DNA of 64,000 bases from sequence record PZ386947.1. One strand, written 5' to 3'. Shown piece by piece: positions 4,300-35,704 of this stretch. The position numbers were made by a program, and so were the translations under genes. Numbering within the stretch: position 1 is the first letter of the stretch; each line of letters opens with the position of its first letter. The notes beneath the pieces are model-generated. The model made no database searches. It was not told the origin of the DNA and saw only the letters and a program-made list of their open reading frames with translations. The DNA comes from a phage.

Positions 4300-5259
4300 T
4301 CACTTCCACTGCATTTCACATGCTAACTGAATGAAAAGATAAGCTAAATGCAATTCAGTATTAGCTGCAATACCATGATACTGATTATTTTCGCCGACAA
4401 TTTCGTACATACGAATAATACTCTGTGGAGTTACACGTGAATAGATTTCTTCGGCAAGTTTACCCACGAACCACGAATAATCGGCTGCATATTTTGGTGC
4501 TAAAGCTCTGAGTTGTTTAACATCTTTATTTTTGAGAGACTCAAGAACATCATCAATAGCACCACGATCGTTAGTAACCAGTGATAAAATACCAGCATCC
4601 AAAACACCTTTAGATGAATAACTATCGAGCTCGCCAATAGTTTTACGAAAATCAGGAAAATTCTTTTTAACCAAAGCTGCTACAACTTTCATATCAGCTA
4701 TAGCAATTCCTTCATGCTTACAGATTTCAGTCAATCGACGAATCATCTGCTTCATCATTTCAATTTTATCTTCATCGGTCGGTTGACCGAACGTAATAAC
4801 TCGGCAGCGTGACTGAAGTGGTTTAATAATACCATCAATATTGTTAGCAGTAATAATAATACTACAGTTTGAACTATAAGCTTCCATAAAGGAACGAAGA
4901 TGTCGCTGAGACTCTGCTAACCCTGAACGGTCAAATTCATCAATAACGATTACTTTTTGACGACCGTCAAATGAAGCTGCGCTGGCAAAATTAGTCAAAG
5001 GACCACGAACGAAATCAATTTTACAATCTGATCCATTCACAAACATCATATCAGCATTTACATCATGACACAATGCTTTCGCTACAGTTGTTTTACCTGT
5101 TCCTGGAGAAGGAGAATGAAGAATAATATGTGGAATCTTACCTTTACTTGTAATAGATTTAAAGGTTTCTTTATCAAAGGCGGGAAGAATACATTCATCG
5201 ATAGTAGATGGACGATATTTCTGTTCAAGAATGTGTTCTTTTTCATTTACGGTAATCAT
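4300..5259 (-). CDS. 44: clamp loader ATPase gp44 (RFC-like AAA+)
   Basis: Walker [11 protein letters not shown], Walker [12 protein letters not shown] motif QSRC; start taken at MITVNEKEH (319 aa). Confidence 0.95.
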
Positions 5260-32493: not shown

Positions 32494-33075
32494 CTAACCG
32501 AGCTTTTTAGTTAATTCATTCCAATGTTTTCTACACAAAGAAACATAAATTTCATCACCAATACAGATTTGATTACCTTCTTTAACTGGTGTTCCATCTT
32601 CCATTAATCGAGCTGTCATAATAGCTTTTTTACCACAATGACAAACTGCCTTTAGTTCAATAAGTTTATCTGCAATCGCCAAAAGTTCTTTAGAACCTTC
32701 AAATAATTTTCCAGCGAAATCAGTCCTTAGCCCATAAGCCATAACAGGAACATTATATGTATCAACAATTCGACTTAATTGATGCACCTGTTTAGTTTTT
32801 AAAAACTGAGCTTCATCTACAAATACACAATGAATATCTTTTTGTGCTTCAGCCCATTTATAGAACTCAAAAATATCCATATCATCCGTAATAATATTCG
32901 CTTCCTGCTTAATTCCAATGCGAGAAACGACTTCACAGACAGAATCACGAGTATCAATAGCAGGCTTAAGAACTAATACACCCATTCCGCGTTCTTTATA
33001 ATTATGTGCAGCAGTCAAAAGAGAAGCAGATTTTCCAGCATTCATTGCTGCGTAAGTAAAAATTAAACTCGCCAT
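32494..33075 (-). CDS. tk: thymidine kinase
   Basis: 193 aa; P-loop AAMNAGKSASLL, zinc ribbon CHCG...C; matches T4 Tk. Confidence 0.95.
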   Translation of the reverse strand: MASLIFTYAAMNAGKSASLLTAAHNYKERGMGVLVLKPAIDTRDSVCEVVSRIGIKQEANIITDDMDIFEFYKWAEAQKDIHCVFVDEAQFLKTKQVHQLSRIVDTYNVPVMAYGLRTDFAGKLFEGSKELLAIADKLIELKAVCHCGKKAIMTARLMEDGTPVKEGNQICIGDEIYVSLCRKHWNELTKKLG

Positions 33076-33084
33076 ATCACCTTC

Positions 33085-33270
33085 TTAAAGCGTATTCACA
33101 TAAGCTATTAATTCGTTTTCTTTCTTATCAAACCGATCAGCAAATTCTTCTTGCTGATCGGGAGATAGCGGGCCGTATTCATCATAAAAGGTGTTTGCTT
33201 CTGTATGCTCATCTAGAAGTTCATGGATAAGCTCAAACAATTTATCTTTTTGTTCTTTACTCAGACTCAT
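33085..33270 (-). CDS. hypothetical acidic protein
   Basis: 61 aa ORF. Confidence 0.45.
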   Translation of the reverse strand: MSLSKEQKDKLFELIHELLDEHTEANTFYDEYGPLSPDQQEEFADRFDKKENELIAYVNTL

Positions 33271-33436
33271 ATATTAATTTCCAGGAGTTTTAAAATAATT
33301 CGCTTTTGCTTAAATATTTCCATAGTTAAATGACCAGTATCTTTTTGACCGATTCCAATGGCAAAACCTTTATTGACAGCGAGTTCAATTAAATTATCAA
33401 GCTCACGTAACACTTCATATTGTAACTCAAAACTAT

Positions 33437-33664
33437 TCATTTCGGTTTACCTTCTTTAACGAAATCAGGATAAGGATAAAATCCTGAATAAAATCCTTCA
33501 CCTTTATGATTGATGCATCCTTTATTAGAACAATAGCACCAATAATCGAAATCACAAGCCATTTCATCATTACATAAAGCAAAAACAACTGGCCATTCAC
33601 ACTTTTCGCAGTGGGCATTTTTAAGAATACTGGTTTGGCTCATAACCATGTAACCTTTAAACAA
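33437..33664 (-). CDS. cysteine-rich small protein (putative zinc-binding)
   Basis: 75 aa with CEKCEWP...C..C.C; the overlapping 33433..33618 frame is rejected. Confidence 0.5.
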   Translation of the reverse strand: MFKGYMVMSQTSILKNAHCEKCEWPVVFALCNDEMACDFDYWCYCSNKGCINHKGEGFYSGFYPYPDFVKEGKPK

Positions 33665-33852
33665 TATTCTTCTACATGTTGTTTACGACCTTTCCTATCA
33701 ATAAAGGTATATTCAACGAATGTTCCAATATAGTCTTTATCTACATCATGTGGACTATTAATTGGGCATTTAGTACGGCAAATGCGTTCCCATTGACGAA
33801 TAATTTCCACTTTGTTTTTAGGATCAAACGGATGCGGGTAATGTACTTTCAT
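33640..33852 (-). CDS. hypothetical protein
   Basis: 70 aa ORF. Confidence 0.45.
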   Translation of the reverse strand: MKVHYPHPFDPKNKVEIIRQWERICRTKCPINSPHDVDKDYIGTFVEYTFIDRKGRKQHVEEYCLKVTWL

Positions 33853-34303
33853 AATCCACCACTATTAAATCAATATCAGGAGTAAACATGTCGATTAATT
33901 TAGAAACCTTATCCCAATCGCCGCCAGCAATACCGCAACCTATGCGTGGAATGTAAATTACTGGTTTAAACAAAAGGGTTTCTGCCTGTAGATTTAATTC
34001 TATCATGCAGTTTACTAAAGCACCATAATCAAGATTAGGACCCGGTTCGTATTGTGTATACAGGTTATAGCATATACCAAATCCCGTAGGACTATGTTTA
34101 AAAACAATAGACATATCGCCTAATTTATCACGAGAACCGTACTCGGTAGTGGTTTTATCTATTTCTAAAATTTTGGGATAGGCTCTTGCTAATTGACCCG
34201 CTACGCCAGAGCCCATTGTGTGGAAGCAATTGCACCCGTGCGCAATAATATTACCTTGAAGAAATAGGGCGACAATATCGCCCTTGATATATTTTACAAT
34301 CAT
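33824..34303 (-). CDS. macro-domain protein (ADP-ribose binding/processing)
   Basis: 159 aa; macro-domain-like motifs IVKYIKGDI, AHGCNC, MGSGVAGQL, GCGIAGG. Confidence 0.7.
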   Translation of the reverse strand: MIVKYIKGDIVALFLQGNIIAHGCNCFHTMGSGVAGQLARAYPKILEIDKTTTEYGSRDKLGDMSIVFKHSPTGFGICYNLYTQYEPGPNLDYGALVNCMIELNLQAETLLFKPVIYIPRIGCGIAGGDWDKVSKLIDMFTPDIDLIVVDYESTLPASV

Positions 34304-34641
34304 CTAGTACTCAATCCTCGATTATAAGAATCTACTAAACGGTCAACCATTGAATGACAAGCGGCTTTATCTTTCTCCTCCGCAACTGAACATTCTAAAG
34401 TATTCCACTTTTTAGCATATCGTTTTAACAATGTATCATTTTTATATCTGCTTGATTTATCTCTTTCTCCGTCTTTATATGCATATATTAATTTCTGCGC
34501 AAATTCAGCTTGGCATGCTTTATTTTTCCCACAATAATCCGCGGCAGTACGGTTTACATACTCTCTAATTTCAGTATATGATGTATCTGCTAACGCAGAA
34601 AATGAAATTAATCCTATACATAAAACCAAAATTTTAGTCAT
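34300..34641 (-). CDS. secreted small protein
   Basis: 113 aa with signal peptide MTKILVLCIGLISFSALA. Confidence 0.5.
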   Translation of the reverse strand: MTKILVLCIGLISFSALADTSYTEIREYVNRTAADYCGKNKACQAEFAQKLIYAYKDGERDKSSRYKNDTLLKRYAKKWNTLECSVAEEKDKAACHSMVDRLVDSYNRGLSTR

Positions 34642-35179
34642 TTACTATTTCCAAAAGTTTATTATTTTTAAGGTAATTAGCCTTTTCTAGGACTTCAGAA
34701 GCATATTTAGAACCAGCTTTAACATTCCATCCCGAATTATAAGAGGATATTGCTTTTCTTATATCGCCCTTATGTATATTTAACCAATAAGAAAGTTCAA
34801 TGTACGCCCAGGAAGCTGAATTGGATCGTTTATTCAACATTCTTTTTATTTCAGCATCGGTCATATTATAACCAAGTTCCTTAACTCTTGCTCGCATAGT
34901 AGGCAAATAATTTTGGAACATTCCATAAGCGTGATGCTTTGGTTTAGATTTTAAATTAACTCCGCCAGAGCTTTCTTGCCATAAAATAGCAGCCATTATA
35001 TGACCTAATCCGCTCTTGTGGATATTTTTGTGTGTTTTATATTTTCCATCCTTAGAAAATTGTTCCCCGAATTGATACGCGTAACGCATGTTATCGAGTT
35101 GGACATTACTGAAAGTATGCTCGGAGCTATGTGCCATCATTGAAATGGCCAATAGACCAGCGAGTAGTGCTTTTCTCAT
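34634..35179 (-). CDS. secreted lytic transglycosylase-like protein (SLT domain)
   Basis: 181 aa; signal peptide MRKALLAGLLAISMMAHS; SLT-like catalytic region WQESSGG...AYGMFQ. Confidence 0.6.
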   Translation of the reverse strand: MRKALLAGLLAISMMAHSSEHTFSNVQLDNMRYAYQFGEQFSKDGKYKTHKNIHKSGLGHIMAAILWQESSGGVNLKSKPKHHAYGMFQNYLPTMRARVKELGYNMTDAEIKRMLNKRSNSASWAYIELSYWLNIHKGDIRKAISSYNSGWNVKAGSKYASEVLEKANYLKNNKLLEIVND

Positions 35180-35186
35180 GCTTACC

Positions 35187-35648
35187 TCATTGAGTTTTAA
35201 TTACTGCTTTAGAAGCCTTTCCTGGTAAACGACGACTGTTAATAATTGCCATCCTACATTGAAGTGACGGGTCTTTGAACTTCGCATTAGGTTTACAAAC
35301 TGTAAATCCAAGCCAAAGATTTCCATCTGTGATTTCTAAACGTCCAGGACGGTATTCAACCCCATCAATAAAATCCTCGTCAATGTCAGGACGCGGAGGC
35401 ATACTCAGGAATTCATTAACTTCTAAAACATGGTCTTTTATTTTGTGGAATAATTCAAAAACATATGTCTCATCAATCTCCCGTTGAATTGCACGATCAA
35501 GAAGATGCTGAGAATATTTTAGATGAAACGATGAGACCCCTGCTGCTTTTGATGCCTCACGAATCTCATTGTTAATTTGACGAAACTCCGACTCAAAGTG
35601 ACGACGAAGCTTATTTCGACGGATAAAAACTTCTGTGTTGATAGTCAT
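35187..35648 (-). CDS. regB: endoribonuclease RegB
   Basis: 153 aa; MTINTEVFIRRNKLRRHFESEFRQINNEIREASKAAGVSSFHLKYSQHLLDR... matches T4 RegB. Confidence 0.93.
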   Translation of the reverse strand: MTINTEVFIRRNKLRRHFESEFRQINNEIREASKAAGVSSFHLKYSQHLLDRAIQREIDETYVFELFHKIKDHVLEVNEFLSMPPRPDIDEDFIDGVEYRPGRLEITDGNLWLGFTVCKPNAKFKDPSLQCRMAIINSRRLPGKASKAVIKTQ

Positions 35649-35674: not shown

Positions 35675-35704
35675 AATTATACCACAGTCAAGAGGAAAAG
35701 TAAA
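35675..35704 (-). promoter_or_regulatory. T4-type early promoter upstream of regB
   Basis: Minus strand TTTACT, 17 nt, TATAAT. Confidence 0.6.

Follow-up and report, generated by a model that had tools for sequence, protein, structure and literature searches.

Among described systems, the closest counterpart of the gene analysed here is tk.4 of phage T4. In a transposon screen, tk.4 was the single significant T4 gene depleted on a host carrying DarTG2, and a clean T4 tk.4 knockout was sensitised to this system (10.1101/2025.11.20.689424). The gene was given the new name adfM, for anti-DarT factor macrodomain, and removal of ADP-ribose from DNA was proposed as its function; the support for Tk.4 in this 2025 preprint is genetic (10.1101/2025.11.20.689424). 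The name AdfM has independently been assigned to gp104 of phage PhiKZ (Cell Reports 2026), which removes DarT2-made ADP-ribose in vitro, shows reduced activity as an N23A variant and is imported into the phage nucleus (PMC13309987). [quoted passage not shown] A longer, lysine-bearing mobile loop of SCO6735 was tied to DNA binding and processivity (PMC9411070). TARG1 also takes off thymidine-linked ADP-ribose (PMC12879935). In a comparative study, macro domains were found in 41% of myoviruses (PMC9503650).

The window analysed here is a stretch of 64,000 nucleotides of phage DNA, which matches Shigella phage CM8, a T4-like member of the genus Tequatrovirus, at all 1301 bases compared between positions 33400 and 34700 (100% identity). 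In the interval between tk and regB, the original prediction had located a macro-domain protein on the basis of four motifs. The reading frame indeed lies between these two genes, and all four motifs are present in its translation: IVKYIKGDI (residues 2-10), AHGCNC (21-26), GSGVAG (31-36) and GCGIAGG (122-128). On the minus strand, the genes follow each other in the tightly packed order regB, vs.1, vs, tk.4, tk.3, three small ORFs and tk. The score against the Pfam Macro profile, the match to PHROG 335 and the presence of homologues in many phage records identify tk.4, as judged from its sequence, as a real gene and not a chance ORF. The features of the locus are listed in Table 1.

Table 1. 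Features of the tk-regB interval, with positions in the 64,000-nucleotide window.
Feature	Position	Strand	Evidence or description
tk	32494..33075	minus	Pfam TK, E=1.7e-60
Tk.2-like 61-aa ORF	33085..33270		directly adjoining tk
57-aa ORF	33267..33440		PHROG 3452
small zinc-binding protein	33437..33664		Pfam Phage_zn_bind, E=4e-29
tk.3	33640..33852	minus	DUF7202
tk.4 3' end / tk.3 start	33824..33852	minus	29-nt out-of-frame overlap; DNA alignment to T4
tk.4/adfM orthologue	33824..34303	minus	159 aa, ATG start; single-domain ALC1/TARG1-like macrodomain
loop 2 of Tk.4, P119-RIGCGIAGGDW130	33914..33949	minus	glycine-rich; near-identical to BT1257/SCO6735 PRIGCGLAGGxW
Gln84 codon of tk.4	34052..34054	minus	column of DarG K80, TARG1 K84, SCO6735 Gln85
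loop 1 of Tk.4, M30-G-S-G-V-A35	34199..34216	minus	predicted phosphate-binding; aligns to TARG1 MGAGIA, DarG MGKG(I/V)A
Asn25 codon of tk.4	34229..34231	minus	equivalent to SCO6735 N27, PhiKZ gp104 N23
ATGA, vs stop codon / tk.4 start codon overlap	34300..34303	minus	read from sequence
vs	34300..34641	minus	next to tk.4
vs.1	34634..35179	minus	Pfam SLT lytic-transglycosylase domain, E=1.4e-5
regB	35187..35648	minus	Pfam REGB_T4, E=1.4e-68
sigma-70-like promoter match ahead of regB	35676..35704	minus	TTTACT-17-TATAAT with upstream TG; candidate

The ATGA shared by vs and tk.4 suggests translational coupling within one transcription unit. It is probable that tk.4 is co-transcribed with regB, vs.1 and vs, and that its product is made early, together with those of its neighbours. 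The sigma-70-like match ahead of regB is a candidate early promoter for regB-vs.1-vs-tk.4; overall, the promoter scan showed no excess of sites (16, vs 19.6 expected from shuffled sequence). A perfect 8-bp GC-rich hairpin, GGGCGAUAUUGUCGCCC, is observed at nt 19-37 of the tk.4 reading frame (34266-34284, minus strand), where it falls in a stretch 100% identical to T4 and was flagged by the terminator scan. It was rejected as a sign of regulation, because despite its local stability the 86 nt around it fold like their shuffles (z=-1.5).

In the RefSeq CM8 record, the tk.4 product is labelled 'phosphatase', and the T4 record reads 'phosphatase; Tk.4; contains A1pp phosphatase motif'; the RefSeq label goes back to the A1pp motif and is probably misleading. 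In the same CM8 record (NC_054939), the note 'Endoribonuclease RegB' stands on vs.1 as well as on several small, unrelated ORFs, apparently carried over by mistake during annotation. The N-terminus of vs.1 contains a signal-like segment, as judged by eye. Between tk and tk.3 (33085-33664), CM8 has three ORFs vs only Tk.1 and Tk.2 in T4, and no counterpart of Tk.1 was seen in this interval.

The assignment as a macro domain was corroborated by profile searches and by the predicted fold. Pfam Macro (PF01661) matches the tk.4 protein over profile positions 2-117 of 118 with 32 bits (E=1.3e-7), above the gathering cut-off of 22 bits, and PHROG 335 matches with E=1.2e-71. Structure prediction, which had been proposed as a check, recovered the macro fold with high confidence: the AlphaFold2 model, based on an alignment of 80 homologues that leaves out the T4 Tk.4 sequence, has a pLDDT of 94.1 and a pTM of 0.89, with residues 155-159 as the sole disordered part (pLDDT below 50). 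In a Foldseek search against the PDB, TARG1 was the best match (E=2.5e-10, TM 0.74-0.84), followed by Poa1p, BT1257 and DarG, while the family profile compared with PDB sequences retrieved BT1257 (7.8e-19), TARG1 (7e-17), SCO6735 (5.6e-16) and DarG (6e-12). CM8 Tk.4 is a macrodomain protein, and its model shows the alpha/beta/alpha macro fold. As its nearest structures are TARG1, Poa1p, BT1257 and DarG, it belongs to the ALC1/TARG1-like class and not to the MacroD or PARG types.

DarG is the sole match to CM8 Tk.4 in the PADLOC library (5.2e-7) and the best match in the NCBIfam library (1.5e-6). An identity as a DarG antitoxin was nevertheless rejected: the NCBIfam model NF048014 scores 27.7 bits vs a cut-off of 250 and is covered only over the first 142 of its 338 positions. 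Tk.4 furthermore has neither Lys80 nor a second domain, and its gene is flanked by vs and tk.3, not by darT. MacroD-type hydrolases carry their catalytic aspartate inside an N-x6-GG[VLI]D motif. In Tk.4 the motif reads N25-x6-SGVA, with the invariant Ala35 at the position of the aspartate, and this type was rejected as well.

To compare the active sites, the sequences of BT1257, SCO6735, TARG1 and two DarG macrodomains were recovered from PDB alignments and then aligned with CM8 Tk.4, T4 Tk.4 and gp104. The column of the catalytic lysine holds Lys in TARG1 (K84), in both DarGs (K80, NFPTK) and in gp104 (MFPTK), whereas it is Gln in CM8 and T4 Tk.4 (NLYTQ), in BT1257 and in SCO6735 (NMIGQ). In the numbering of the 5e3b chain, Gln85 of SCO6735 aligns with Q84 of Tk.4, and H24-V25-C26-N27 aligns with H22-G23-C24-N25. 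The position of the catalytic Asp125 of TARG1 is occupied by Ala126 in CM8 Tk.4. N25 and Q84 are invariant in the 80 close homologues as well as in a wider set of 148 sequences, each representing a 50% cluster, where G33 and Y82 are the only further invariant columns. Judged from these alignments, the active site is SCO6735-like and not DarG-like, with a Gln/Asn pair and neither a catalytic lysine nor a Lys/Asp dyad. The macro domain of human CHD1L/ALC1 (7enn/7epu/7otq) aligns to BT1257 with a glutamine (IVAQH) at the Q84/Q85 position, hence the Gln-type site extends beyond bacteria and phages.

Macro domains hold the diphosphate and the distal ribose of their ligand with two glycine-rich loops, while an N-terminal aspartate contacts the adenine. 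In agreement with the conserved nucleotide-binding residues expected by the original prediction, Tk.4 keeps both loops, MGSGVA (30-35) and PRIGCGIAGG (119-128), in alignment with TARG1 and DarG. Within the 80-sequence family alignment, G33 and A35 of loop 1 are invariant and M30 and G31 are conserved at >=90%, and in loop 2 P119, G122, G124 and W130 are invariant. D9, located in the KGD motif, is either D or N across the family. The mobile loop shows a 6-column gap in Tk.4 compared to BT1257 and SCO6735, its length being equal to that of DarG and TARG1. Because the long loop is absent, we leave Tk.4 outside the SCO6735/BT1257 subclass, although its residues suggest that it works like SCO6735. 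The match to Poa1p is strong over residues 3-79 only. His23 and Ser30, the residues mutated in deposited Poa1p structures, correspond to His22 and Thr29 of Tk.4, of which H22 is invariant and T29 is found in only 49 of 79 family members.

CM8 Tk.4 and T4 Tk.4 (NP_049723) share 58% identity over 155 aa (E=1e-70), and both genes occupy the same slot, with the gene order vs-tk.4-tk.3. By sequence and position, the CM8 ORF is assigned as the positional orthologue of T4 tk.4/adfM. The nucleotide identity between CM8 and T4 is 97.4% for tk, 96.8% for vs, 99.3% for vs.1 and 98.1% for regB, vs 63.5% for tk.4, for which the CM8 gene was compared with positions 4423-4890 of the T4 stretch (L002) by DNA alignment. 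Over its first ~40 nt, tk.4 does not differ from T4, and the divergence starts just downstream, resulting in a sharp 5' boundary. Compared with T4, the allele is a cassette-like replacement. At the tk.4/tk.3 junction, a 13-bp deletion takes away the tk.4 stop codon of T4, and the last 29 nt of CM8 tk.4 consequently overlap the start of tk.3 in a different frame, where they encode part of the C-terminal tail. The C-terminus of the CM8 protein, STLPASV, replaces PLL of T4 and forms a tail that is longer by four residues, the last five residues being disordered.

The two proteins differ at 69 alignment positions, four of which are the CM8 tail missing in T4. Only three of the 69 are located in columns conserved at >=90%, and T4 is the outlier, with GAGIGKGNW vs the consensus GCGIAGGDW. 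Since it is T4 and not CM8 that departs from the consensus at the three conserved positions, the CM8 allele is at least as canonical as the T4 allele, which was shown to work. The CM8-type allele (>=90% protein identity) is present in 313 phage records and the T4-type allele in 224, and a third class with 80-90% identity to T4 in 159. These counts indicate that at least three tk.4 allele classes circulate among T-even phages.

Beyond these phages the family is very large. Of 50,697 phage records, 2790 carry a Tk.4 homologue by tblastn, and an exhaustive search returned 6116 cluster representatives of Tk.4 homologues at E<=1e-3. In other records the homologues are named 'macro domain protein', 'Poa1p-like family protein' or 'Tk.4'. 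The chromosome of Pelagimonas phthalicica (L003, 6001-6459) encodes a homologue with 40% identity (P0094) as a stand-alone gene. Within 6 kb of it there is no DarT or other ADP-ribosyltransferase and the neighbours are of housekeeping type, hence its context provides no linkage evidence. In this orphan status it resembles SCO6735.

We consider it likely that CM8 Tk.4 is an ADP-ribosylglycohydrolase that cancels DarT2 by SCO6735-type hydrolysis of thymidine-ADP-ribose on phage DNA. On a DarTG2 host, the DarT2 toxin would ADP-ribosylate thymidines in single-stranded phage DNA and thereby block replication. Tk.4 would grip the ADP-ribose moiety via its two glycine-rich loops and hydrolyse the thymine-ribose bond, restoring the DNA. 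The SCO6735-type mechanism is suggested because the Gln84/Asn25 pair matches that of SCO6735: Gln84, held by Asn25, may position the distal ribose for the attack by an activated water. The absence of the lysine-bearing mobile loop, which in SCO6735 was linked to DNA binding, counts against this mechanism. The ORF, fold, class, residue equivalences and orthology come from the present analysis, while the DarTG2 phenotype and the SCO6735 chemistry come from the cited papers. The original prediction had also named the reversal of a host ADP-ribosylation-based defence as a possible role, which is in line with the requirement for the T4 orthologue against DarTG2; we infer that the CM8 allele shares its substrate with SCO6735 and its role with T4 Tk.4.

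Each of the catalytically dead variants SCO6735 Q85A, DarG K80A and TARG1 K84A is an inhibitor of DarT in vitro, the strongest being that of SCO6735 (PMC9411070), and protection by Tk.4 therefore need not be purely enzymatic. If Tk.4 acted chiefly by binding and inhibiting DarT2, as an antitoxin mimic with hydrolysis being secondary or absent, a protein-protein arms race would also suit the sharp allele replacement in near-identical T-even genomes. We regard this as improbable, because the invariance of N25 and Q84 in 148 diverse representatives argues for selection on catalysis, Tk.4 does not have the C-terminal DarT-binding domain of DarG, and PhiKZ gp104, a non-orthologous phage macrodomain, acts enzymatically. 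Small ADP-ribose derivatives as substrates, i.e. ADP-ribose-1''-phosphate, O-acetyl-ADP-ribose or ADP-ribose-derived immune signals, e.g. of Thoeris, are suggested by the legacy 'A1pp phosphatase' annotation and by the similarity to Poa1p with His22 and Thr29. There is little probability that this is the role of Tk.4, however, as the sole reported tk.4 phenotype is directed against DarTG2, a DNA-modifying system, and SCO6735, which has a matching Gln/Asn pair, is active on DNA. Data on Thoeris were not found, and the word is absent from the HIDEN-SEQ paper.

The very large size of the family and its orphan bacterial member without DarT indicate that DarT2 products may not be the sole substrate. 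T-even phages encode ADP-ribosyltransferases of their own, and Tk.4 could reverse other kinds of ADP-ribosylation, be it uracil-linked on RNA, ester-linked on protein, or the marks of Alt, ModA and ModB and RNAylation. Alt, ModA and ModB modify arginine, however, and we know of no arginine-linked ADP-ribose substrate of the TARG1-like class. SCO6735, TARG1 and DarG strip uracil-linked ADP-ribose from single-stranded RNA too (PMC13036486), and SCO6735 also de-modifies PARP1 (PMC9411070), but the literature consulted describes no bacterial defence that would stop T-even phages by ADP-ribosylating uracil. CmdT, which modifies adenine in a reaction described as irreversible (PMC13036486), likewise counts against such a target, and the CmdTAC paper, checked for a macrodomain link to T4, contained none. 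Overall, a role of this kind seems very improbable to us, and hydrolysis of thymidine-ADP-ribose on phage DNA is retained as the preferred function of Tk.4.

For T4, this gene has already been annotated and its role published, and the CM8 ORF brings no new biology. What the analysis adds is the assignment of a Gln-type active site, the mosaic structure of the allele and a collision in naming: from the sequence comparison, AdfM now denotes two non-orthologous proteins, T4 Tk.4 and PhiKZ gp104. For those working on AdfM, the Gln/Asn assignment points to N25 and Q84 as residues to mutate. T-even phages carry orphan antitoxin-like enzymes, the NADAR protein AdfN against DarTG1 and the macrodomain protein Tk.4/AdfM against DarTG2. 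More speculatively, and with considerable doubt, the Tk.4 family may form a distinct, mostly phage-borne TARG1-like subclass that joins the SCO6735-like Gln/Asn pair to a short, DarG-type loop. On this reading, an arms race would explain why the allele is replaced like a cassette in T-even genomes that are otherwise almost identical, with individual alleles neutralising different DarT2 variants or acting on additional substrates, for example uracil-linked ADP-ribose on RNA.

Compared with the known systems, human TARG1/OARD1 (PDB 4j5r) is the top structure in Foldseek, yet it uses a Lys84/Asp125 dyad where Tk.4 has Gln84 and Ala126. DarG (Thermus aquaticus 5m31, M. tuberculosis 5m3i) differs by Lys80 in place of Gln84, and it has a C-terminal DarT-binding domain and an adjoining darT gene, whereas Tk.4 consists of 159 aa in one domain. 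The Gln/Asn pair and loop 2 are shared with Streptomyces coelicolor SCO6735 (PDB 5e3b) and Bacteroides BT1257 (PDB 2fg1/2afc). The identity to these cellular proteins is only 26-27%, and the phage-encoded Tk.4 is without their mobile loop, which is longer by 5-6 residues and carries Lys89/Lys94. PhiKZ gp104 is, like Tk.4, a stand-alone phage macrodomain, which neutralises DarT2 and whose N23 aligns with N25; BLAST, however, shows a local match of 23 residues only, and gp104 is of the Lys type (FPTKDNW) and DarG-like (E=9.4e-25 to M. tuberculosis DarG), in contrast to the Gln-type Tk.4. Among 155 aligned residues, 65 differ between T4 Tk.4 and the CM8 protein, and the invariant residues H22, N25, Q84, G122, G124 and W130 are common to both.
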